The notes under the pieces were generated by a model. The model had not been told where the DNA came from, did no database searches, and worked only from the letters and a program-made list of their open reading frames with translations. Shown in pieces: positions 4,113 through 64,000 of a stretch of DNA of 64,000 nt (the stretch's first letter is position 1; each line of letters opens with the position of its first letter). The position numbers and the translations under genes are program-made. Source of the DNA: Candidatus Schekmanbacteria bacterium (GTDB lineage Bacteria; SZUA-182); the NCBI GenBank assembly GCA_016235675.1, contig JACRJN010000131.1, positions 1,779-65,778 on the forward strand, read 5' to 3'.

Positions 4113-4172
4113 CATAGGGTAGGGTGGGCTGCGCCCACCATTTTGATGGGCACAGCCCACCCTACAGGCTAC
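4113..4172. repeat. GTAG-headed palindromic element (family J: GTAGGGTGGGCTGCGCCCACC inverted pair)
   Basis: An inverted pair 'tagggtgggctgcgcccacc' / 'ggcacagcccaccctaca' is seen here. Related copies occur at 4648..4745, 11945..12035 and 29222..29246. Confidence 0.8.
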
Positions 4173-4647: not shown

Positions 4648-4745
4648 AACGTAGGGTGGGCTGTGCCCACCAAAGGCTAACCAGGGCAATTTGAACAGCG
4701 ACATATGGGCGAAAAACAAAAGGTTGGCAAAGCCCACCCTACATA
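4648..4745. repeat. Family J GTAG palindromic element pair
   Basis: 'gtagggtgggctgtgcccacc' ... 'gcaaagcccaccctacat' form inverted arms around a ~50-nt spacer. Confidence 0.8.
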
Positions 4746-5415: not shown

Positions 5416-6816
5416 ATGCCGAAAGAATACCGAACTGTGGCCTCGGTTTCCGGACCGTTGATTTTAGTGGACAAGGTAGAAAGCATTAAATACGAAGAAC
5501 TGGTGGAAGTGGAACTGCCCGGCGAACAAATCCGTCTGGGCAAGGTACTGGAGGTCTCAGGAAATACCGCCCTGGTGCAGCTTTTCGGTACATCTACCGG
5601 CATCAATATCTATCAGAGCAAAATTCGCTTTCTGGGCAAGGGGATTGAACTGGGGGTTTCTCCCGATTTATTGGGACGGATTTTCGACGGCCTGGGACGC
5701 CCGATCGACAATGGCCCGCGCATTATCCCGGAAAAACGCCTGAACATCAACGGGAATCCGATCAACCCCTATGCCCGCGATTATCCCTCGGAGTTTATCC
5801 AGACCGGTATTTCCACCATCGACGGCCTAAATACACTGGTGCGCGGACAAAAATTGCCCATCTTCTCAGGTGCCGGTCTCCCGCACTCCCAAATGGCGGC
5901 CCAAATCGCCCGTCAATCCAAGGTTTTGGGCAAGGAAGAAGCCTTTGCCGTGGTCTTTGCCGCCATGGGCATCACCTTTGAGGAATACGAGTTTTTCCGC
6001 CAAGATTTCCAGAAATCCGGTGCGCTGGAACGCTCGGTGCTGTTCGTCAATCTGGCCAATGACCCGGCGGTAGAACGCATCGCCACCCCGCGAATGGCCC
6101 TGACCGCCGCTGAATATCTGGCATTTGAGAAGGATATGCACGTTCTGGTTATCTTAACCGATCTGACCAATTATTGCGAAGCCCTGCGCGAGGTTTCCGC
6201 CGCCCGCAAGGAAATACCCGGTCGCCGCGGTTATCCCGGTTACATGTATACCGACCTGTCCACGATTTATGAACGCGCCGGACGCATCAAGGGCAAAAAG
6301 GGATCGATCACCCAGATTCCCATTCTTACCATGCCGGAAGATGACAAAACCCATCCCATCCCGGATTTGACCGGTTATATTACCGAGGGACAAATTATCC
6401 TGGGACGGGCGATGCACCGCAAAGGCATCTATCCCCCAATCGATGTCTTGCCGTGTCTTTCCCGCTTGCGGGATAAAGGCATCGGCGAGGGCAAGACCAG
6501 GGAAGACCACGCCGGCTGGTCGAATCAATTGTTTGCCGCCTATGCCAGGGGTAAAGAGTCTGAAGAATTGGCGGTTATATTGGGTGAATCGGCTCTATCG
6601 GCAGCCGATAAAACCTTCCTTAAATTCGCCCTGGAATTTGAGCGGCGGTTTGTACAGCAAGGGGCCTATGAAGACCGGGCTATCGAGGAAACTTTGGCTA
6701 TCGGCTGGGAATTAATGGCGGCACTTCCGAAAGCCGAACTCAAACGGGTGAAAGAGGATCATATCGCTAAATATATGCCGGCGGGGAAAGAATTAGGCTT
6801 GAGGCTTGAGGCCTGA
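5416..6816 (+). CDS. atpB: V/A-type ATP synthase subunit B
   Basis: 466 aa with conserved regulatory B-subunit blocks, preceded by a strong RBS (CAGGAGG). Confidence 0.95.
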
Positions 6817-6927
6817 GGCTTGAGTAATGAGATTTGAGGTAAAATCACAGGCAGGATGCCTGTGCTACCGTAGGGCGAATTTGTATTCGCCCTCTTTCCC
6901 TCAAGCCTCAAGTCTCAAGCCTTTTTA
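6796..6927. repeat. Composite palindrome: GAGGCTTGAGGCCTGAGGCTTGAG heptamer-like arms enclosing a family C hairpin
   Basis: Arms at 6800..6830 and 6895..6925 are reverse complements. The internal 'cacaggcaggatgcctgtgctacc' is a family C hairpin. The element sits between the convergent atpB and PHP genes and is a likely terminator. Confidence 0.75.
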
Positions 6928-7571
6928 TTACAGCGATGAACCAAATTTCGGGCATTAACCCAAATTTGCTCTATCTGGGACTCGGTCAGCCCTGCGCCGA
7001 TGGCTACTTTAATGGCTTGTTCCTGCGAAATGAGGTCATCCGGTTCATGAGAGTCGGTATCAAGTATTAAAGAAGCATCTGATTTTGCGGCCAACTTGGC
7101 CACATGGCCGTTTGTCAGGGAATGTCCCTTACGGCTGGTAATTTCCAGAAAAATATGACGCTTTGCCGCCAAACGGACGTCTTCTTCGCTGATCAAACCC
7201 GGATGCGCCAATATATCGATGTCGGATTTTAAGGCATAATGATTGGTGCCAGGAACAACCGGCTCGGCTATGGTTTCCCCATGGACAACGATAATTTTAG
7301 CGCCCAGGGAGCGGGCACGGTACGCCAGATCGGGGATGAGCTTAGGCGGAACATGCGTTAATTCTATGCCGGGGATAGCGGTTATTTCCCAATGCTGATT
7401 AGCGGTTTGACAGGCTTGAATAATACGCGGGATTACAAATTCCAGGTTGGACGGATCGGCATGATCGGTCAAAGCGATGGCTTTATAGCCTTTAACGACG
7501 GCGTGGCGTATCAATTCCATCGGAAGGAGAACGCCGTCACTGAACAAAGAATGGGTATGAAAATCAAACAT
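6915..7571 (-). CDS. PHP-domain (histidinol-phosphatase-like) metal-dependent phosphoesterase
   Basis: 'MFDFHTHSLFSDG' and 'ALTDHAD' are PHP-domain motifs. Confidence 0.7.
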   Translation of the reverse strand: MFDFHTHSLFSDGVLLPMELIRHAVVKGYKAIALTDHADPSNLEFVIPRIIQACQTANQHWEITAIPGIELTHVPPKLIPDLAYRARSLGAKIIVVHGETIAEPVVPGTNHYALKSDIDILAHPGLISEEDVRLAAKRHIFLEITSRKGHSLTNGHVAKLAAKSDASLILDTDSHEPDDLISQEQAIKVAIGAGLTESQIEQIWVNARNLVHRCNKKA

Positions 7572-11862: not shown

Positions 11863-11892
11863 GTTAAAACCTCTAAGAAATACTTTTTTCAC

Positions 11893-12102
11893 CACAAAGC
11901 ACACGAAGATCACGAAGAAAAAATAAATAGTTTAATTAAATATCATAAATAGTAGGGTGGGCTGCGCCCACCATTACCTCAAACTCATGAATATTCTTAA
12001 AATGGTGGGCGCAACCCACCCTACAAACTGCATTACCGTAAAAAAATAGCATTTGTAATTCTTCGTGTGCTTCGTGCGCTTCGTGGTGAAAAGAAATTTA
12101 CC
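11893..12102. repeat. Family E composite palindrome (CACGAAG heptamer arrays flanking a family J GGTGGGC palindrome)
   Basis: 'cacaaagcacacgaagatcacgaagaaaaa' at 11893.. is mirrored by 'ttcttcgtgtgcttcgtgcgcttcgtggtg' at 12058... Between them lies a 'tagggtgggctgcgcccacc...ggtgggcgcaacccaccctaca' palindrome. Confidence 0.8.
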
Positions 12103-20287: not shown

Positions 20288-20356
20288 GCTAAAACCGAGA
20301 TACGAGGTACGAGATACGTAGAAAAGCATTTTCGTATCTCGTATCTCGTGCCTCGG
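20288..20356. repeat. GAGATACGAGGTACGAGATACG heptamer-array hairpin
   Basis: 'ccgagatacgaggtacgagatacg-loop-cgtatctcgtatctcgtgcctcgg' is the same word family as 9222..9290. Confidence 0.8.
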
Positions 20357-20484
20357 TAATTGAGGCACTTTTCTTGCAGTAACATTGCTAACTATAAATT
20401 AACGGTACAGGCTTGTAACGGGGGGCTGGTTTTTTTCGAGCCTCGCAAGCCTGGAAACAGCAAATTTCAAACAGGAGGTTCGGA

Positions 20485-28231: not shown

Positions 28232-28434
28232 TTTGGTAGCACAGGCTTCTAGCCTGTGATATCATTTTCTGGTTGTCATTCCCGAATGACTTTATCGGGA
28301 ATCCAGTTCTAAAGTTCTAATTGCTTGAAAAGCCATATCCCCGATAAAGACATTCGGGGATGACAGAGTGCCTTCTCAACCAGAAAATGATATGACCTGT
28401 GATGCACAGGCTAGAAGCCTGTGCTACCATACCA
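28232..28434. repeat. Nested element: family C inverted arms (GGTAGCACAGGCTTCTAGCCTGTG) enclosing a family G element
   Basis: Arms at 28232..28272 and 28390..28434 are reverse complements, with the family G copy at 28262..28372 between them. Confidence 0.8.
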
Positions 28435-29084: not shown

Positions 29085-29246
29085 GAACGGTAGCACAGGC
29101 ATCTTGCCTGTGATGTGGGCAACGCCCACACAAAAACGGTGCAATGACTGGAAGTTGTTGGGTAAATCGAAAGCTTCCATTCTATGCCGCAACACACAGG
29201 CTGGAAGCCTGTGCTACCCTACCCAATGGTGGGCACAGCCCACCCT
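29085..29246. repeat. Family C inverted pair plus family J palindrome
   Basis: 'ggtagcacaggcatcttgcctgtg' ... 'cacaggctggaagcctgtgctacc' is followed by 'ggtgggcacagcccaccctac'. Confidence 0.75.
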
Positions 29247-29850
29247 ACTTTTTCCAATAATCCGCCTTGGCCAGATCCTCTTCTCTTGATATTAAAGCCG
29301 GAAAAGTCAGCAGCAATATCTTGCAATCCAGAAGAAAGGACAGGTGGCGGATATATTCTATATCGTATTCGATTCTTTTATCCCAATCAATGGATTTCCG
29401 TCCGCTGACCTGAGCCAGACCGCTAATTCCCGGCCTTATAAGCAGCCTTTGCCTTTGATGGGGCGTATATTGATCCACCTGATATTTTAACGTCGGACGC
29501 GGCCCGATGATGCTCATATCGCCGCGCAAGATATTGATCCCCTGGGGCAATTCATCCAACCCGCTGACGCGCAACCATTGGCCGATGCGGGTCACCCTGG
29601 GGTCGTTTTTCTCCACCAGTATCCCCGCTCCCATTTTGGCGGCATTGGGCAGCATGGTGCGGAATTTGTATAAATCAAATAACTTGCCGTCTTTGCCTAC
29701 CCGCTCCTGGCTGAAAAATACCGTCCCTTTAGAATCCAATTTTATCAGCAGGGCGATGATTAGCATGGGAATAAGCATCAGCGACAAAATGACCAGGATG
29801 AAAATTATGTCTAACGCCCGCTTAAAATATTTGGAATAAAGCCCGTTCAT
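29245..29850 (-). CDS. Undecaprenyl-phosphate sugar phosphotransferase (PglC/WbaP C-terminal-domain type)
   Basis: 'MNGLYSKYFKRALDII' plus one TM helix and the conserved bacterial sugar transferase domain. The tracked upstream start lies in the repeat. Confidence 0.8.
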   Translation of the reverse strand: MNGLYSKYFKRALDIIFILVILSLMLIPMLIIALLIKLDSKGTVFFSQERVGKDGKLFDLYKFRTMLPNAAKMGAGILVEKNDPRVTRIGQWLRVSGLDELPQGINILRGDMSIIGPRPTLKYQVDQYTPHQRQRLLIRPGISGLAQVSGRKSIDWDKRIEYDIEYIRHLSFLLDCKILLLTFPALISREEDLAKADYWKK

Positions 29851-31485: not shown

Positions 31486-31702
31486 TTTAACCACGGAAGC
31501 CACGGAAGCCACGGAAAATCAAACTATTCTCCCCCTCTTTGGCAAAGAGGGGTCGGGGGAGATTTTAAAATTGCTTTCAACCATCAAGTATTTTTAATTA
31601 CTTATGGGAAAATGACAATTTGAAAATCCCCCTTTATCCCCCTTTGCTAAAGGGGGAATTATTATTGATACTTTTCCGTGCCTTCCGTGCCTTCCGTGGT
31701 TA
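31486..31702. repeat. Family E composite palindrome (CCACGGAAG x3 arrays flanking two inner hairpins)
   Basis: 'ccacggaagccacggaagccacggaa' at 31488 is mirrored by 'ttccgtgccttccgtgccttccgtgg' at 31672. Inner hairpins are 'ccctctttggcaaagaggg' and 'cccctttgctaaagggg'. Confidence 0.8.
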
Positions 31703-31951
31703 ACTCTTGTTAGATTTCCTCTCGATATAACCCGCCAAAGACCCCATATCGGCAAAGACTTCCGGGCCGACATCTTCATCCGCCACCCTGATCCCGAATT
31801 CGACCTCCAAGCCGCCGATCAAATCGATCATCCCGATGGAATCGATCCCGATCTCTTTGAGCGCTTGAGCCTCCGATATATCAGAGACTTCCTGATTGGC
31901 GATTCCGGCCACTAATTTTTTCAACCTGATATTTATTTCATTGGTACTCAT
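31700..31951 (-). CDS. Acyl carrier protein
   Basis: 83 aa with a 'GIDSIGMIDL' phosphopantetheine-attachment Ser motif. It lies immediately upstream of the acyl ligase on the same strand. Confidence 0.7.
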   Translation of the reverse strand: MSTNEINIRLKKLVAGIANQEVSDISEAQALKEIGIDSIGMIDLIGGLEVEFGIRVADEDVGPEVFADMGSLAGYIERKSNKS

Positions 31952-42540: not shown

Positions 42541-42700
42541 TTTTGTTGTCAGTTGTCAGTTGTCGGTTTTAATTCTTTAACTGACAACCGACAACTGACA
42601 ACTTTTTTTCATCACCAGCCGTAGTCCCAGCCCTTTAGGGCTGAATTTCCGGGGCTAAAGCCCCGGCACTACGGCTACGGCTACGGCTGACAATCGCCTG
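42541..42700. repeat. TGTCAGTTGTC heptamer-array hairpin followed by a family B GTAG element
   Basis: 'ttttgttgtcagttgtcagttgtcgg..ccgacaactgacaact' is followed by 'cgtagtcccagccctttagggctgaatttccggggctaaagccccggcactacggctacgg'. Confidence 0.8.
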
Positions 42701-46564: not shown

Positions 46565-48328
46565 TTGAAAAATTTCCTGCGCCTGAAAAAATACTTCTAC
46601 CAATACCGCAAGTCGATCTTGGCCGGGGTTATGTGTTTAGTCCTGACTAATCTGGTGAGTTTAACCGCTCCCTGGGTCTTGAAAACCGCCATCGATCAGT
46701 TGCGCCAGTCCCTTACCCATAAGCGTCTGTTCTATTATGCCGCCCTGATTTTGGGAATCAGCATCGTACAGGGAATTTTCCGCTATCTTACCCGCCAGAT
46801 ATTAATCGGCGCCTCCCGCCACATTGAATACCATTTCCGCAACGATATTACACTCCATTTGCAGAAATTGCCCTGGAGCTTTTTTATCAAACACAAGACC
46901 GGCGACATTCTCGCCCGCACCACTGAAGATTTGAATGCGGTACGCATGGCGATTGGCCCCGGCATCATGCACTTTTCCCATACTATTGTGTTGTTCTTCG
47001 TGGTGGCCGGATTGTTGTTCTACATCAATCCGGTCCTGGCTTTCTGGGCCTTGCTGCCGCTACCGGTTTTTTCCCTCTACATCAAAAAGAATACCAAGCG
47101 GGTTTATCAGTCCTTCATGTCGGTGCAGCAAAAACTGTCCGCCCTGACCTCCCATGTGCAGGAAAATTTCTCCGGCATCCGCATCATCCAGGCTTATCAG
47201 CGGGAAGAAGCATCCATCGAAACCTTTCAAAAGCTGGGGAGGGAATACATCCAGGGCAATATGGAACTGGCGCGTTACTGGGGGCTGCTGCTGCCGCTGA
47301 TGATGTTAATTTACGGTCTGGGGCAGATAATCGTACTTATGCTGGGAGGCCGTCAGATTATCCTGGGCCAATTGAGCTTAGGCGAGTTCGTCGCTTTCAA
47401 CGCCTATCTGGCCATGCTGCTTTTCCCGATGATGGCTTTAGGCTGGGTAATGAATCTCTTCCAGCGGGGAGCGGCGGCCATGGAGCGCATCTCGTTGATT
47501 CTGGATGAACCGGAACAAGAAAACCGGGGGCAATTATCGGAAACCCCCGCAAAAGGAGAAATAGAATTCCGCCACTTACATTTTTCCTACGAAACGCAAA
47601 ACAAAAAATGGGCATTGAAAAACATCAATCTGAAAATCCCCGCAGGAACGACATTAGGCATTGTCGGAGCGGTGGGAGCGGGCAAGACCACTTTAGTTAA
47701 TTTACTCCCCCGCTTACTGGAAATCAGTCAGGGGCAGATTTTAATCGACAACCAGGAGATTAGAAACATTCCCTTAAAGGCATTGCGCAGCCTGATTGGA
47801 TATGTCCCTCAGGAAGGCTTCCTCTTTTCCGCCTCCATCAAGGAAAACATCCTCTACGGCTTCGAATGCTTAATTGACAAATGCAACGAGGAAGAAAAAA
47901 TTATTGAGGCTGCGCAAATCTCCCAGATATGGGAGGAAATCCACACCTTACCGGAGCGTTTCGAAACAAAACTGGGGGAACGCGGAATCACCCTGTCCGG
48001 CGGCCAGCGTCAGCGCACGGCTTTGGCCCGCGCCCTGATTCGCGACCCTAAGATATTGATACTGGATGACTCCTTTGCCAGTGTCGATACCTATACGGAA
48101 AGGAAAATCCTGCAACACCTCAAACCATTTATGGCAGGCCGCACCTGTCTGATTATTTCGCACCGCATATCAACGGTGATGGACGCCGACCGGATAATTG
48201 TCCTGGATGAGGGGGAAATCGTTCAGCAGGGGCGGCATGAGGATTTAATCCGGAACCCGGATGGTTTTTACGCCAAAACCTATGCCAAACAATTATTATT
48301 GGATGAGATTACCAGGGGAAACAAATGA
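46565..48328 (+). CDS. ABC transporter permease/ATP-binding protein (exporter half-transporter)
   Basis: A 6-TM domain is followed by a nucleotide-binding domain with Walker A 'GAVGAGKTT', signature 'LSGGQRQR' and Walker B 'ILILDD'. Confidence 0.85.
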   Translation: MKNFLRLKKYFYQYRKSILAGVMCLVLTNLVSLTAPWVLKTAIDQLRQSLTHKRLFYYAALILGISIVQGIFRYLTRQILIGASRHIEYHFRNDITLHLQKLPWSFFIKHKTGDILARTTEDLNAVRMAIGPGIMHFSHTIVLFFVVAGLLFYINPVLAFWALLPLPVFSLYIKKNTKRVYQSFMSVQQKLSALTSHVQENFSGIRIIQAYQREEASIETFQKLGREYIQGNMELARYWGLLLPLMMLIYGLGQIIVLMLGGRQIILGQLSLGEFVAFNAYLAMLLFPMMALGWVMNLFQRGAAAMERISLILDEPEQENRGQLSETPAKGEIEFRHLHFSYETQNKKWALKNINLKIPAGTTLGIVGAVGAGKTTLVNLLPRLLEISQGQILIDNQEIRNIPLKALRSLIGYVPQEGFLFSASIKENILYGFECLIDKCNEEEKIIEAAQISQIWEEIHTLPERFETKLGERGITLSGGQRQRTALARALIRDPKILILDDSFASVDTYTERKILQHLKPFMAGRTCLIISHRISTVMDADRIIVLDEGEIVQQGRHEDLIRNPDGFYAKTYAKQLLLDEITRGNK

Positions 48329-51297: not shown

Positions 51298-51375
51298 ACC
51301 AACCAACATATTCCAATTGACAATGCCGACGGTAAAGATTATATTTTATAATATTTGGCTAATGTTGTTTTTTTA

Positions 51376-51692
51376 CCACGAAGGCCACAAAGCACACGAA
51401 GAAAAAATTTCGAGAGTGTTCACCTAAAGATAGATATTTATATATTTAAAAACGTAGTCCCGTGGCTTTAGCCGCGTATTTTCAGCCCCTTAGGGCTGCA
51501 AAAAAAGGTGTGTTCGTATGGAACGCGCCGAAAGTATTGAGAGTCATAATTGCAGGGCTAACGCCCTGAAGTTCAGCCCTGAAGGGCTGGGACTACGATA
51601 TTACTGGGACTACGATATTATATTGATGTTTTGGCCAATCCCCAGGCCGAAAAATTTCTTCGTGCTCTTCGTGTGCTTCGTGGTTGGTAATT
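51376..51692. repeat. Family E composite (CACGAAG heptamer arrays flanking family B GTAG hairpins)
   Basis: 'ccacgaaggccacaaagcacacgaagaaaaa' at 51376 is mirrored by 'ttcttcgtgctcttcgtgtgcttcgtgg' at 51658. Inner hairpins are 'gtagtcccgtggctttagccgcg' and 'cagccctgaagggctgggactacg'. Confidence 0.8.
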
Positions 51693-51707
51693 TCATCTGG
51701 GAGCGAC

Positions 51708-52928
51708 ATGCCTGTTTTCGTTTACAAAGCCTGTGACAGTACCGGGAAAATTATTACCGGCACCATGGAAGTAAAGGATCGGACGGCGGTGACAGCCGGT
51801 CTGCAAGCCTCTAATTACTACCCGTTGCAGATCGATGAACAGCAAAAAGATCAGGGCATATCCGCAACCGCCGGTTTAACTTTAAGCTTTCAGCGGGTAA
51901 AGAAAAGAGATATATTAACCTTTACCAACCAATTGGGAATCCTCATGGAAGCCGGATTGCCGCTGGATCGCAGCTTAGCCATCCTCAAAGACCTGACGGA
52001 TAATAAAAAATTCGCCAGGATTATCGATAACATCCTGCGCAGCATCGAAGGCGGCAGTTCGCTGGCCGACGCCTTGGCGCGTCATCCCCGCGTTTTTTCC
52101 CGCCTCTATGTCAACATGATTAAGGCGGGCGAAACCGGCGGCGTGCTGGAATTGGTCATCAAGCGCCTGAGCGAATTTCTCGGCAACTCCCAGGCATTGC
52201 AGGATGATATTATATCGGCTATGATCTACCCGACTCTTTTGACCCTGGTGGCGGCAAGCGCGGTGGCCACTTTGTTGCTCTTCGTCGTCCCCAAATTTGC
52301 CGCCATGTTCAGCGATATGGGGCAGGCTTTGCCCCTGTCCACCCAAATTTTACTGGGCGTTACCGATATTTTGATTAATTATTGGTGGGCGATTTTAGGC
52401 AGCCTGGTGTTGCTGATTATCGCTTCCCGTTATTTTATCGGAACCGAGTCCGGTAAATATACCTGGGACGGCTGGAAGCTCAAGATTCCTTTATTGGGCG
52501 CACTGATTCAGCAAATCGAAGCCGCCCGTTTTACCCGCACCTTAGGCACATTGATTAAAAGCGGAGTCCCGATCCTGCAAGGGCTGAATATAGTAAAGGA
52601 CATCATCAGCAACAGCGTCATCTCCGCCGCGATGTATAAAGTCAGCAACGGCTTGAAGGAAGGCGGCGGAATAACCACCCCTTTGATGGAAAGCCACGTC
52701 TTCCCCCCCCTGGTAACGCACATGACCGCCATCGGAGAAGAAACCGGGCAATTAGACACTATGCTGATCAAAGTGGCCGATAGTTACGACGAAGAAATAC
52801 GCAACAGTATCAAAAGATTAATATCCTTTATCGAACCGGCGATGATTTTATTGATGGGCATCGTGGTCGGATTTATCGTGGTAGCCATGTTGATGGCGAT
52901 TTTCAGCGTCAATCAGATGCCGTTTTAA
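51708..52928 (+). CDS. Type II secretion / type IV pilus platform protein (GspF/PilC family)
   Basis: Two T2SSF repeats with 3 TM segments. An ATG at 51708 is preferred. Confidence 0.8.
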   Translation: MPVFVYKACDSTGKIITGTMEVKDRTAVTAGLQASNYYPLQIDEQQKDQGISATAGLTLSFQRVKKRDILTFTNQLGILMEAGLPLDRSLAILKDLTDNKKFARIIDNILRSIEGGSSLADALARHPRVFSRLYVNMIKAGETGGVLELVIKRLSEFLGNSQALQDDIISAMIYPTLLTLVAASAVATLLLFVVPKFAAMFSDMGQALPLSTQILLGVTDILINYWWAILGSLVLLIIASRYFIGTESGKYTWDGWKLKIPLLGALIQQIEAARFTRTLGTLIKSGVPILQGLNIVKDIISNSVISAAMYKVSNGLKEGGGITTPLMESHVFPPLVTHMTAIGEETGQLDTMLIKVADSYDEEIRNSIKRLISFIEPAMILLMGIVVGFIVVAMLMAIFSVNQMPF

Positions 52929-52995
52929 AAAATCGTTGACGGTTGACGATTGTCGGTTATTATTTTTTTAACTGACAACTGACAACCGTCAACAG
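52929..52995. repeat. TGACGGTTGACGATTGTCGG / CTGACAACTGACAACCGTCAAC heptamer-array hairpin
   Basis: Same 7-bp-periodic word family as the element at 42541..42610. Confidence 0.75.
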
Positions 52996-53005
52996 AAATA
53001 TTACC

Positions 53006-53530
53006 ATGAACCTCTTATTACATATTTGCTGCGCTCCCTGCACGGTCTATCCGCATCAGCAATTAACCCAGGCCGGGGTTCAGATTAAGGGATTCTTCTT
53101 CAATCCCAATATTCATCCCCTTCAGGAATTTAAAAAACGGCTGCTGGCGGTGCAGCAGTTGCAAACAATCACCGGGCTACCGGTAATCTATCGGGATGAA
53201 TATGGTTTGGAAGAATTTGTGCGCCAGGTGGTTTTTCGGGAGCAACAGCGCTGTAGCTTTTGCTACTTTTGGCGCCTGGAGATGGTGGCTAAAACCGCCA
53301 AGGAACAAAATTGCGCGGCATTTTCCAGCACCCTGCTTTACAGCAAGTATCAAAAGCATGAATTGATCAAAGAAATCGCTGAAGATATAGCTCAAAAGGA
53401 AAAGATTCCCTTCTATTATGAAGATTTCCGCCGCGGCTTTTCGGAAGGCATAAATCTATCCAGGCAAATGCAGCTTTACCGCCAGCCCTATTGCGGCTGC
53501 ATTTACAGCGAGGCGGAAAGGTATAAATAG
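53006..53530 (+). CDS. queH: Epoxyqueuosine reductase QueH
   Basis: 'LLLHICCAPC' and the C-terminal 'CGCIYS' cysteine motifs mark the DUF208/QueH family. Confidence 0.8.
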   Translation: MNLLLHICCAPCTVYPHQQLTQAGVQIKGFFFNPNIHPLQEFKKRLLAVQQLQTITGLPVIYRDEYGLEEFVRQVVFREQQRCSFCYFWRLEMVAKTAKEQNCAAFSSTLLYSKYQKHELIKEIAEDIAQKEKIPFYYEDFRRGFSEGINLSRQMQLYRQPYCGCIYSEAERYK

Positions 53531-53545
53531 GTTTCGGTATCCGAT

Positions 53546-53977
53546 ATTATCACCACGAAGAACACGAAGGGCACGAAGAATGGTATGAATAGGATAAAGG
53601 TAAAGAGTGAAGGTAAGGGACTTAGAAGATATTGACATACCCCCCACCCTAACCCTCCCCCGCAAGGGGCATAGGCGCTAACTTAGGCATTTAAAGTTCC
53701 CTCTCCCCCTGGGAGAGGGTTAGGGTGAGGGTACCATAATTTAATTTTTTAAGCTTTTGTACCATCATCCCGACCTTCTCCCAAGGGGAGAAGGAGCCTA
53801 AGTTAGCGCTTATGCCCGCAAGGGGGGAGGGAATTTATCCCCCTCCCCCCTTGATGGGGGAGGGTCGGGGTGGGGGTGATTATCGCGATCCTGAAACGGT
53901 ATGTTTGAAAATTTCAAGTCCCTAAACACCCTTTTCCCTTTTTCCCTTCGTGGCCTTCGTGCTCTTCGTGGTGAATC
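53546..53977. repeat. About 430-bp nested palindrome bounded by CACGAAG heptamer arrays (family E)
   Basis: 'caccacgaagaacacgaagggcacgaag' at 53552 is mirrored by 'cttcgtggccttcgtgctcttcgtggtg' at 53945. Inner pairs are 'cccccaccctaaccctcccc'/'ggggagggtcggggtggggg' and 'gcataggcgctaacttaggc'/'gcctaagttagcgcttatgc'. Confidence 0.8.
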
Positions 53978-53997
53978 AAAAAATTGGAATCAGCAAC

Positions 53998-55320
53998 ATG
54001 ACCACTAAAATAATCGATGCGGTCTGCGCCGCCGGGGTAGTCGGAGCGGGCGGAGCCGGATTTCCCGCTCATATCAAGCTGCAAGCCAAAGTCGATCTGA
54101 TCATCGCCAACGGCTGCGAATGCGAACCGCTGCTTTGTACCGATCAATATCTTATGGAAAATCAGGCCGATGCGGTGATAAAGGGATTATCCCTTGCCCT
54201 TCAGACCACCGGAGCGGATAAAGGTATCATCGCCCTGAAGGGAAAATACTCCGCTTCATACCAAGCGTTACAAAAAGCGGCTAAAGGTATCAAGGCAATA
54301 GAATTCAGCTTATTGCCCAATTATTATCCCATGGGGGATGAACAAATCCTGACCTGGCAGGTTTCGGGACGCCTGGTGCCCCTGGGCGGGATTCCCACCC
54401 AGGCCGGGGTTTTAGTGCAAAACGTGACCACACTGTCCCAAATAGCCGCAGCTATTGACGGGCTGCCGGTCACTCATCGAATGGTTGCCGTTTTGGGAGA
54501 AGTCGCCGAACCTAAGGTATTGAAAGTCCCTGTCGGTACCCCGGTTTCCCAGGTCATCGCATGGACGGGCGGCTTTCTGCGTGAGGACGTCGCGATCATT
54601 ACCGGCGGCCCGATGATGGGGCAATTGACGGTCGATCCCGACACCCCGATAACCAAAACCACCAATGCCTTGCTGGTATTGCCTAAAGAACACCATTTAA
54701 TCCTCAACAAAAGAAAAAACCTGCTGCATATGCAGCGCCACAGCCAATCCTACTGCCACGCCTGCTCAGGCTGTCAGATATTGTGCCCGCGCCAGGGTTT
54801 GGGACATCCCATCAGGCCGCAGCGTTCCATGCGTTCTGCCGGTTACCCCTTTACCACCCTCCCCTCCCCTTTACACAATATAACAGCATGCAGCCAATGC
54901 GGAGTTTGCGGATTTTATGCTTGCCCTATGGGATTAAATCCGGCTATAATACATAAAGACTTGCAAAAATATCCAAAAGATCATAAAATAATGATTATTC
55001 CCACATCACGCTCACAAAATCGATCGCTCCCCTTGGGAATTCCCACTGTCCGCCTCATTCAACGTCTGGGGCTGGGACGCTATAACCAACATCCGGCGCT
55101 GGATAACAACCGTTATCAGCCACAGTGGGTCAGATTGCCTTTAAAACAGCATGTAGGCGATGCTTCAATTCCGGTGGTGTCGGAAGGCGCCAAAGTTAAA
55201 GCCGGGGATTTACTGGCAAAGATTCCCGCCGGTAAATTAGGGGCCAGACTACATGCTTCGATAAATGGCAAGGTTAAGAAGATTACGGAGCGGGAAATAA
55301 TTATAACAATGGACAATTGA
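53998..55320 (+). CDS. RnfC/PduS-like NADH-binding (SLBB) iron-sulfur protein
   Basis: The 'GAGGAGFPAHIKL' motif is followed by two 4Fe-4S motifs ('CHACSGCQILCP', 'CSQCGVCGFYACP'). No other Rnf subunits are adjacent. Confidence 0.5.
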   Translation: MTTKIIDAVCAAGVVGAGGAGFPAHIKLQAKVDLIIANGCECEPLLCTDQYLMENQADAVIKGLSLALQTTGADKGIIALKGKYSASYQALQKAAKGIKAIEFSLLPNYYPMGDEQILTWQVSGRLVPLGGIPTQAGVLVQNVTTLSQIAAAIDGLPVTHRMVAVLGEVAEPKVLKVPVGTPVSQVIAWTGGFLREDVAIITGGPMMGQLTVDPDTPITKTTNALLVLPKEHHLILNKRKNLLHMQRHSQSYCHACSGCQILCPRQGLGHPIRPQRSMRSAGYPFTTLPSPLHNITACSQCGVCGFYACPMGLNPAIIHKDLQKYPKDHKIMIIPTSRSQNRSLPLGIPTVRLIQRLGLGRYNQHPALDNNRYQPQWVRLPLKQHVGDASIPVVSEGAKVKAGDLLAKIPAGKLGARLHASINGKVKKITEREIIITMDN

Positions 55321-55385
55321 CAATGGACAATTGACAGTTTTTCGTTATCCATTATCCACTATCCACTATCCACTATCCATTGAAT
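55308..55385. repeat. GACAATTGACAATGGACAATTGACAG + CCATTATCCACTATCCACTATCC 7-bp-periodic repeat
   Basis: Tandem heptamers are directly visible. Related words occur at 41083..41100 and 61505..61545. Confidence 0.7.
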
Positions 55386-62282: not shown

Positions 62283-62660
62283 TAAAAATTATGGGGGCGA
62301 CTGGTTTCGACGGGGCTATTGAACCTCCAACTGCATGTCGAGCATTCTACTGACTCGTAAATCCGGTGGAAAAACAATAAACGCAAACTACTATGGCGAA
62401 AGCCAATTAGCTTTAGCCGCCTAATTAGTGCGGCTTCGTCCACCCTGCTTCGCTGATGGAGCGGGATGTGGGCGGCATATACATCAGATAGCGGATCCGC
62501 TTCGCCTAAGGGCGGACGAGCGAAACTACACTTTGGCTGGCCTTTCTTTGATCCTGCCGCCGGGAGCGGAAAGAGGCGAGAAACAATCCAGCGGCTAAAC
62601 ATGTAGAAGTTGCCGGCAAGGTACTCTCGGACGCGGGTTCGATTCCCGCCGCCTCCACCA
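62283..62660 (+). ncRNA. ssrA: tmRNA (SsrA)
   Basis: 5' GGGGGCGACUGGUUUCGACGGGG pairs with 3' ..CGCCUCCACCA, including a G3:U70 wobble. A T-arm GGGUUCGAUUCCC is present. The tag ORF GCA AAC TAC TAT GGC GAA AGC CAA TTA GCT TTA GCC GCC TAA encodes ANYYGESQLALAA. Confidence 0.85.
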
Positions 62661-63059: not shown

Positions 63060-64000
63060 ATGAAAAAAATGGGTATTAAAGTAAATTCTGCATTAATTTG
63101 CCTATTTCTGGCTGTTTTCGGCATTTTACCCCCCCCATCGTCATTTGCATCTTCATTGGCAGGCCCGCCCCCAAGTACGGAAGAATTGGCGCAAAAAGCC
63201 GATTTACTCGTGATCGGTCGTGCAACCTCAAAAGAGGCGGAATGGGATGAACAACATAATACAATCAATACATACTATCGCATTGAAGTAGAACAAATTA
63301 TCAAAGGGAAAGTTGTCCCCGATCTTGTCGTCAGATACGAAGGGGGAGAAGCGGAAGGAATGGGTACGTGGCGTTCCGATGTTAATCCGGATATATTGAA
63401 AATCGGTGACCAGGTAATTCTTTTTTTGCAGCCTGACAACCAGTACCCGTATTCTGTAACAGGTGGGGAAAATCAGTATATTAGCATTAAAAACCATAGG
63501 GTTGATTTCGGGAAGATATCTGAATTAGATCGATGGGTGGGTCAAAGAGAGGAACAAACGGTGGAGCAGTTTGTTCAAAATATCAGGGAGCGTTTGGAAC
63601 TGCCGTCTCCGATTTATATAACTCCCGCTCCTTCTAAAGAAAGACCTCAGCCCACTCCAAAGGAGCCGCCTCAGTCCGCTCAAACATCCGGGACAGCTCC
63701 CGCTGAAAAAAAAGAGGAGCTGCCTCAGTCCGCTCAAACATCCGGTACGGCTCCCGCTGAAAAAAGAGCGCAGCCGCCTTCCCCCGCTCAGAGAATGCTC
63801 ATCCCTAAGCAAGACAAATCGGATCATTTAATTCCGGATAGTCATAAGAAATTAGCTCCTTCTCCCCAAATAAGCATTAGTTCTGGTTTGCCTAACTTAA
63901 AGGCTTATGTACCCAGCGGTTGGGGGAGCGCATTGGTTGTCTCTTCGGTTTCCGGCACAAGCTATGACGGGCCTAACCTTAATAATTGTAATAACACTTA
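63060..64000 (+). CDS. Hypothetical secreted protein with proline/threonine-rich tandem repeats (3' end beyond the window)
   Basis: An ATG at 63060 follows a GGAAGGAGAG RBS. An uninterrupted frame of more than 310 codons runs to the window edge and is absent from the ORF track because it has no stop. It has a signal peptide 'MKKMGIKVNSALICLFLAVFGIL' and a tandem 'PQSAQTSGTAPAEKK' repeat. Confidence 0.6.
   Translation, partial: MKKMGIKVNSALICLFLAVFGILPPPSSFASSLAGPPPSTEELAQKADLLVIGRATSKEAEWDEQHNTINTYYRIEVEQIIKGKVVPDLVVRYEGGEAEGMGTWRSDVNPDILKIGDQVILFLQPDNQYPYSVTGGENQYISIKNHRVDFGKISELDRWVGQREEQTVEQFVQNIRERLELPSPIYITPAPSKERPQPTPKEPPQSAQTSGTAPAEKKEELPQSAQTSGTAPAEKRAQPPSPAQRMLIPKQDKSDHLIPDSHKKLAPSPQISISSGLPNLKAYVPSGWGSALVVSSVSGTSYDGPNLNNCNNT

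Follow-up and report, generated by a model that had tools for sequence, protein, structure and literature searches.

Between genes of a Candidatus Schekmanbacteria bacterium, in 64,000 nucleotides of contig JACRJN010000131.1 (the window), there are four hairpins closed by short tandem arrays that face one another, the largest being a palindrome of some 430 bp at positions 53546-53977. Each arm is an array of three short cores, CACGAAG in three of the four elements, held at a 9-bp phase, and arms of the same build recur in bacteria of many phyla as well as in phage-like contigs. The reading that we prefer, with a confidence a little short of even, is that of a REPIN- or foldback-like non-autonomous repeat, the arms of which would be three-site recognition arrays for a putative trans-acting protein.

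The window has 17 copies of the heptamer CACGAAG where 4.9 are expected, 17 being reached in 0/100 shuffles, and 16 of the 17 copies lie within paired arrays, the lone one at 46996 being intragenic and a chance match. A reading of the letters alone that preceded this work (the sequence-only reading) had ascribed a 7-bp periodicity to the arrays; the period is 9 bp in every one of them (Tandem Repeats Finder; core starts 9 nt apart), the unit being a 7-nt core with a 2-nt spacer, three units to the arm. The inverted pairs number four, of which three are built on CACGAAG and the fourth on CACGGAAG, and their arms, of 29-34 nt and 83-94% complementary, constitute terminal inverted repeats. The pattern ACCRCRRAK-NN-CRCRRAK-NN-CRCRRAK matches the six CACGAAG-type arms only, with 0.01 matches expected in the window, and the 9-periodic arrays of the window are those eight arms and no others. 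In all four elements the array stem closes the hairpin (fold z from -9.7 to -21.6). The pairs and their arms are:

11886-11919/12059-12092: element 1 pair, 88% complementary.
11886..11919, + strand: element 1 left arm, TTTTCAC + CACAAAG-CA-CACGAAG-AT-CACGAAG, some 30 nt away from the downstream gene's ATG (11862, minus strand).
12059..12092, + strand: element 1 right arm, CTTCGTG-TG-CTTCGTG-CG-CTTCGTG + GTGAAAA, 39 nt from the stop of a PASTA-like gene (12125, minus strand).
31487-31518/31672-31703: element 2 pair, 94% complementary.
31487..31518, + strand: element 2 left arm, of a variant lineage, TTAA + (CCACGGAAG)x3, 17 nt from the TTG start (31474, minus strand) of an acyl-CoA-ligase-like gene.
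31672..31703, + strand: element 2 right arm, (CTTCCGTGC/G)x3 + TTAA, the end TTAA being the stop codon of a minus-strand acyl carrier protein (ACP)-like gene (31700-31951).
51375-51404/51655-51684: element 3 pair, 83% complementary.
51375..51404, + strand: element 3 left arm, ACCACGAAG-GC-CACAAAG-CA-CACGAAG, with a promoter-like site (51317-51345) directly upstream.
51655..51684, + strand: element 3 right arm, CTTCGTG-CT-CTTCGTG-TG-CTTCGTG-GT, its last core ending 25 nt before the gspF ATG (51708).
53550-53578/53946-53974: element 4 pair, 93% complementary.
53550..53578, + strand: element 4 left arm, TCAC + CACGAAG-AA-CACGAAG-GG-CACGAAG, its first core 23 nt past the QueH stop (53530).
53946..53974, + strand: element 4 right arm, CTTCGTG-GC-CTTCGTG-CT-CTTCGTG + GTGA, its last core ending 27 nt before the ATG of an RnfC-like gene (53998).

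Three further copies of the architecture of element 4 had been claimed by the sequence-only reading; four inverted pairs are indeed present, with the qualification that the core of the pair at 31487-31703 is another one, CCACGGAAG. This unit consists of an 8-nt core and 1 nt, the period still being 9 (100% matches by Tandem Repeats Finder), and it is fully uniform within each arm, with a spacer that differs between the two arms.

How far beyond this organism does the module extend? An exact scan for CACGAAG-NN-CACGAAG-NN-CACGAAG gave at least 119 loci in species-representative genomes and at least 120 in IMG/VR contigs. Among the matches listed, the carriers include Planctomycetota, Acidobacteriota, Desulfobacterota, Verrucomicrobiota, Chloroflexota, Nitrospirota, Methylomirabilota and Binatia, Gamma-, Alpha- and Betaproteobacteria, a candidate phylum and phage-like contigs, with three Herpetosiphon species, Desulfobacter vibrioformis and Thioalkalivibrio denitrificans as isolates. 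The raw number of arrays was rejected as evidence, since control arrays are also frequent in IMG/VR (96 loci for the mirrored GAAGCAC and 44 for the shuffled ACGCAGA, mostly coding repeats); the real signal lies in pairing, cap and orientation. An inverted partner is present within 500 nt for 38-49% of CACGAAG arrays versus 1/91 and 3/38 of the controls, and AC stands directly before 77% of the arrays (at -2/-1 in 126/157 and 145/157 arrays). For the 185 AC-capped arrays with enough flank, the partner lies on the inner side in 95 and on the outer side in two, and 183 have exactly three units; they are not the unpaired simple repeats that the sequence-only reading had named as its alternative. 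The consensus can be written (T)T-M-A-C-CACGAAG-rr-CACGAAG-rr-CACGAAG … mirror image. The two arms lie 9 to 377 nt apart (median 84), and the interiors are unrelated between copies, even within one metagenome-assembled genome (MAG), in keeping with the differing interiors that the same reading had pointed out for the window.

The seed arms had been selected for exact cores, and a comparison of core and spacer conservation within them was rejected as circular; conservation was measured on the partner arms instead. Relative to the seed complement their cores are 84-92% conserved, the AC cap approximately 90% and the spacer dinucleotides 39-44%. On the CACGAAG strand the spacers favour purines, and most of their mismatches are of G:T or A:C type. 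Within the window there are core substitutions at 2/126 positions and opposed spacer mismatches at 9/12 positions, with spacers that differ among all arms. It is not base pairing as such that is kept constant but the cores, their phase of 9 bp, the number of units, the cap and the orientation; together with the free spacers, this constancy bears the signature of a sequence-specific recognition that reads each unit. To this extent the earlier suggestion of a protein-binding array appears sound, the arrays behaving like sequence-specific recognition sites; it was the 7-bp period attached to it that was in error.

The mechanism that we have in mind starts from an arm that is a fixed three-core array with 9-bp phase and an outer AC or (T)TMAC cap, two such arms standing face to face with intergenic DNA of any kind between them, 9 nt to several hundred nt long and sometimes with a small gene in it. 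Each arm may be a recognition array for a sequence-specific protein acting in trans, most likely the enzyme by which the module is copied or moved; copying would be of the module as one unit, possibly in the form of a single-stranded hairpin. Only cores, phasing, unit number and orientation stay fixed; spacers and interiors drift. The complementary arms can fold back as single-stranded DNA or RNA, and probably do so in the cell. Coordinated variants of the core (CACGGAAG, CACGAAT, CACAGAG) behave as sub-families and reside in chromosomes and phage genomes of many phyla.

Such lineages are seen directly. The CACGGAAG lineage of element 2 recurs in other contigs with a TTCAC cap, and lineages with CACAGAG, CACGACG and CACGGAG cores have matching partner arms; in an alignment of 55 arm pairs, selected for complementarity, 15/27 stem pairs are changed on both sides. 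Two related phage contigs, L212 and L139 (80-84% identical), differ at two sites: at the first, L212 has a 335-nt insertion, comprising the arms around an open reading frame (ORF) of 60 codons together with short flanks, where L139 has a 12-nt spacer, and at the second, L139 has CACGAAG x3 and L212 has CACGAAT x3 opposite ATTCGTG x3. Elsewhere the arms bracket a 99-aa ORF (L128), an array hairpin marks a mosaic junction (L152/L213), and identical arm copies are present within one contig (L142). Flanking direct repeats, the mark of target-site duplication, are absent around 108 pairs; the inverted repeat itself runs 0-5 nt past the first core, the extensions of 2-5 nt being AC, CAC/AAC, TCAC or TTCAC.

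The 432 nt at 53546-53977, which contain element 4, fold as one stable hairpin both as RNA (-258.8 kcal/mol, z -16.65) and as DNA (-135.5 kcal/mol, z -16.6), and the nested inner repeats on the strength of which it had been called a multi-layered palindrome of about 430 bp could be mapped as layers. Those layers, and the interior of element 1, are:

53579..53945, no strand: element 4 interior, an almost unbroken palindrome.
53641-53661/53856-53876: element 4 interior layer, C-rich/G-rich, 90%.
53653-53688/53796-53831: element 4 interior layer, 83%, contains GCATAGGCGCTAACTTAGGC.
53698-53744/53749-53795: element 4 central layer, 77%.
53819-53831/53841-53853: element 4 side hairpin.
11952..12024, no strand: element 1 interior, an inverted pair of GTAG-headed repetitive extragenic palindrome (REP) hairpins (GTAGGGTGGGCTGCGCCCACC).

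Hairpins of the last type also stand free of arrays, at 4119-4165, 4651-4742 and 29224-29248, as do copies elsewhere in the window of the GTAGGGTGGGC…GCCCACC and the CCCTCTTTGGCAAAGAGGG hairpins. The array-free copies show that the inner hairpins, which the sequence-only reading took for cargo of the elements, are not part of the array family; they are independent dispersed REP-type repeats. That reading was correct in seeing terminal inverted arrays around variable, mostly palindromic DNA as a family distinct from the GTAG elements, and its term 'foldback' fits the anatomy. The 430-bp size would have come about through other palindromic repeats, for instance REP-type hairpins, accumulating or being duplicated inside the bracket.

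Several observations concern these layers. The GTAG-headed REP family (GTAGGGTGGGCNNNGCCCACC) has 11 matches in the window against 0.03 expected, one inverted pair being that inside element 1, and a motif search of the window saw no RAYT-like gene. The sequence GCATAGGCGCTAACTTAGGC (53669-53688, 53796-53815) is found near-unchanged as GCATAGGCGTCAACTTAAGC in an unrelated deltaproteobacterial MAG (L008 1561-1580), where it adjoins a CACGAAG array on the outside of the arm, unlike its inside position in element 4. Layered stacking of arrays with different cores occurs, as does tandem repetition of whole hairpins: in a Vicinamibacterales MAG (L049 6400-7800) there are about seven tandem copies of a 156-bp unit consisting of a whole CACGAAG hairpin and a 54-nt spacer, and in two 94%-identical contigs (L202 3230-3560, L242 8970-9310) outer CACGAAG arms surround a second nonamer-array pair of CGCGAAG/CGCCAAG type, the two-layer element being kept between them with few core substitutions.

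A number of considerations weigh against a REPIN- or foldback-like repeat. Single arms are non-palindromic and have no GTAG or CGTC tag, and are therefore not REPs, and near-identical cores across phyla are atypical of REP-type repeats, which are lineage-specific. Clustering of the ORFs in 8-15-kb neighbourhoods of genome and viral loci gave no recurrent partner gene, the families returned being common ones only (ABC ATPases, sigma-54 regulators, TPR and thiamine pyrophosphate (TPP) enzymes), and a regex search detected no HUH/Y1 motif in the ORFs of approximately 1.9 Mb of array-flanking DNA, a search that a single-copy gene elsewhere would escape; with neither a recurrent gene nor an HUH/Y1 gene linked, any recognising protein would act in trans. 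The phages that differ by presence and absence of an element are only 80-84% identical, which leaves exact insertion junctions unreadable. Hybrid pairs, with CACAAAG x3 or CACCAAG x3 opposite CTTCGTG x3, may hint at independent origin or turnover of arms, and spacer differences among all arms fit old selected sites at least as well as recent copying. In favour of such a repeat, placement is REP-like, tolerated or useful 3' of genes and scarce in promoter regions. By ORF calls that are heuristic, the 79 pairs whose two flanks could be classified divide into 45 co-directional, 27 convergent and 7 divergent gene pairs, and arrays adjoin gene ends somewhat oftener than gene starts.

Might the hairpin act as RNA? 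A transcribed stem of 27-30 bp could insulate, process (e.g. via RNase III) or stabilize neighbouring cistrons, the DNA repeat being merely the inherited form of the module. This is unlikely, and of the rivals it fares best. All four window copies are between co-directional genes, PASTA-like gene to membrane protein gene (element 1), ACP-like to acyl-CoA-ligase-like gene (element 2), GGDEF gene to GspF (element 3) and QueH to RnfC-like gene (element 4), with Pfam assignments for GspF, QueH and the RnfC-like gene taken from their orthologues. The arm on the start-codon side ends 17-30 nt before the downstream gene, leaving room only for a ribosome-binding site, and the opposite arm is 1-79 nt past the upstream stop. 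Immediately 5' of the left arm of element 3 is a strong sigma-70-like promoter match (51317-51345, TTGACA-17-TATATT, 11/12), because of which at least element 3 is probably transcribed; all of its 310 bp would then form the 5' leader of gspF. The extreme stability of the RNA folds, the enrichment at gene 3' ends and the arrays of phage contigs, at gene junctions or panhandle-like around small ORFs, also speak for an RNA role. Against it, the inferred sense strand of elements with a flanking-gene direction has 50 mismatches of G:U type and 60 of A:C type, with no excess of G:U. The cores are identical yet the spacers are not complementary, which a stem alone would not require, and structure does not explain conservation of sequence across phyla. 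No T-run follows the arms, as the U-tract of an intrinsic (Rho-independent) terminator would follow its GC-rich stem, nor does a terminator scan of the window call them; the flanks tend towards T on their 5' side and towards A on their 3' side. Rfam 15 at its gathering threshold identified in the window a tmRNA only and no array match, and an E-value search of 51300-54100 yielded sub-threshold unrelated families, mostly eukaryotic miRNA-precursor models.

Two further sets of contigs bear on these intergenic regions. An independent short-read assembly of the same organism contains a Logan contig of 1986 bp (L120) that begins just past element 3 and ends about 110 nt beyond QueH, within element 4, ends that fit repeats breaking assemblies. 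In two relatives (L121, L123; 70% amino-acid identity) the orthologous spacers are without arrays, the relatives being too distant to separate insertion from loss; there the QueH/RnfC-like spacer is filled by a widespread palindromic repeat of TGTCATTCC…GGAATGACA type (L121 10030-10115, L123 7700-7775), which in the window is at 28274-28365.

Somewhat less probable than an RNA role is that the arrays are in-place, non-mobile binding arrays for a conserved chromosomal DNA-binding protein, be it a nucleoid-organizing factor, a polar roadblock, a regulator or a recombinase that acts on an invertible segment. Cores far better conserved than spacers, exactly three units at 9-bp phasing in strict face-to-face orientation, and spacers that differ among all the arms of one genome, as expected of old selected sites, all speak for it. 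It sits poorly with discrete core lineages in one genome that are uniform within an element, with the presence or absence of an element in related phages and with separations of 9-377 nt, the shortest of which would not allow looping or inversion. No regulator or recombinase was linked in the examined neighbourhoods. As regards an invertible promoter switch (inverton), the arms of many pairs stand 9-40 nt from each other, and neighbourhood clustering gave no recombinase that recurs near the arrays.

A MITE (miniature inverted-repeat transposable element) of the classical cut-and-paste kind, with terminal inverted repeats of 27-30 bp offering three sites to a DDE transposase encoded elsewhere, is improbable; a MITE was one of the two kinds of element that the sequence-only reading had named. 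Arms of typical terminal-repeat length, dispersed intergenic copies and the passenger ORFs between the arms in L128 and L212 are what it would predict. However, the 108 examined pairs are without flanking direct repeats, the interiors are unrelated and the elements differ in length (about 70 to 430 bp), even among the copies of one genome, and neither an autonomous partner nor a linked transposase came to light: no transposase lies inside or next to an arm pair in the examined loci, nor is one carried there by an element with these ends, and the gene for a transposase or DNA-binding protein bordered by the arrays, which had been proposed as a thing to look for, was not found in the examined neighbourhoods. 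The consensus arm, compared by BLAST with annotated plasmids and phages, returned coding look-alikes only, or nothing.

Least probable of all is a factor-free mutational by-product, in which slippage builds arrays, template switching mirrors them and CACGAAG is one common outcome, for despite several unrelated period-7 array-stem hairpins in the window and other genomes, a widespread GTTGTCA x3 array that is preferentially paired (partner downstream in 11/41, upstream in 2), perfectly uniform units in each arm of element 2 with arms that differ at the spacer, and some uniformly variant arms without compensation in the partner, different phyla share the 7-nt core and the AC cap, the unit number that slippage should vary is fixed at three, and heterogeneous spacers stand beside identical cores.

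The heptamer-array hairpins merit description in their own right. Those of the window are at 6788-6929, 20294-20357, 42545-42602, 52935-52986 and 55306-55379, with stems AGGCTTG/CCTCAAG, CGAGATA/TATCTCG, GTTGTCA/TGACAAC and GTTGACG/AACTGAC together with a non-complementary ACAATGG + TATCCAC pair, and GTTGTCA x3 is present at 63 IMG/VR loci. Since heptamer-stem hairpins coexist with the nonamer elements, and GTTGTCA x3 is preferentially paired, array-stem hairpins look like a general class. Near the end of the window, in 62293-62660 and 63661-63779, are the tmRNA gene (194.9 bits with Rfam) and, about 1 kb downstream of it, a 54-bp tandem repeat of 2.2 copies with 89% matches.

If the arms of a REPIN- or foldback-like repeat are indeed recognized in trans, what might the recognizing protein be? 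The TnpA_Y1 proteins of subclass 2.1.2, whose distribution over the phyla is patchy, have a domain of DnaA_C-like helix-turn-helix fold, which reads boxes of 9 bp, and had no associated repeats found (PMC6006769). It is a speculative and rather unlikely proposition that the arrays, perhaps also the heptamer array hairpins, are the cognate DNA of a horizontally spreading DNA-binding enzyme, with this orphan Y1 HUH subclass as candidate. Between the element terminus TTAACCACG and the DnaA box TTATNCACA, 7/9 positions agree, and a tblastn search of plasmids with E. coli RayT found only short Y1 proteins that lack the extra DnaA_C domain. If the link were true, the arrays would define a new class of mobile, REPIN-like hairpins that spans phyla and whose members also carry small genes from one phage to another.

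Small repeats such as REPs, bacterial interspersed mosaic elements (BIMEs) and MITEs are normally lineage-specific, unlike the present 27-nt module, which is the same across phyla and in phage-like contigs. Its rigid grammar, of three cores, 9-bp phase, AC cap and face-to-face arrangement, points to a conserved recognizing machine that nobody has named. Identification of the recognizer would explain the spread of the repeat, could supply a substrate for orphan domesticated transposases and would help to explain why assemblies of carrier genomes break at intergenic regions. For the uncultured phages the module is an easily searched marker of gene boundaries and mosaic junctions. In the open full-text literature, to which our view was limited, neither the array family nor its motif strings are described, the STRR/SDR papers and those on Geobacter 'multicopy nucleotide sequences' with their supplements included, and provisionally we regard the family as undescribed. 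Likenesses to parS, sigma-54 promoters, boxA, CsrA sites and attC were considered and dropped, as they fit some spacer variants only or have the wrong geometry.

With which of the known systems does the family have most in common? It resembles the bacterial MITEs (Correia/NEMIS, RUP, Nezha) in being short, non-coding and intergenic with terminal inverted repeats, and differs in that no target-site duplication, conserved interior or length, or cognate insertion sequence was found. The short tandemly repeated repetitive (STRR) heptamers of cyanobacteria, reportedly described by Mazel et al. in 1990, are likewise short intergenic tandem arrays with several sequence families per genome, and the window holds heptamer arrays of such a kind as well; in contrast the present arrays, from a non-cyanobacterial host, have a 9-bp period with a 7-nt core in place of a 7-bp one, strictly three units, an obligate face-to-face arrangement and an AC-capped outer end. 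Multi-site ends, operators and centromeres, such as L1-L3/R1-R3 of Mu, the omega heptads and the 7-2-7 sites of NarL, have phased short cores on each side, inverted and with free bases between the cores, and the resemblance is of logic only, since sequences, unit size, genome-wide dispersal and the lack of a linked protein gene set the present family apart. The eukaryotic foldback (FB) transposons have long inverted termini of short tandem sub-repeats and a variable loop that sometimes contains genes. Their inverted termini of sub-repeats, their variable and sometimes coding middle and the snapping back of the whole element are all paralleled here, on a bacterial and phage-borne scale with arms of 27-30 bp and a fixed three units, and with no end duplication or associated transposase seen.

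REPINs and BIMEs are REP doublets mobilized by RAYT / TnpA_REP (Quentin et al. 2018, PMC6006769; Di Nocera et al. 2013, PMC3733652). Shared with them are high-copy intergenic dispersal, inverted conserved end modules that form a hairpin around a poorly conserved spacer, the lack of target-site duplication, a preference for gene 3' ends and convergent pairs, and sub-families within a genome. However, the arms described here are triple tandem heptamers at 9 bp, not small palindromes, and have no GTAG/CGTC head; no RAYT-like gene was found nearby, and the core is common to many phyla and phage contigs where REPs are species-specific. Dispersed intergenic palindromic repeats are well known as a kind, and what sets this family apart among them is the rigid three-unit grammar and its conservation across phyla.

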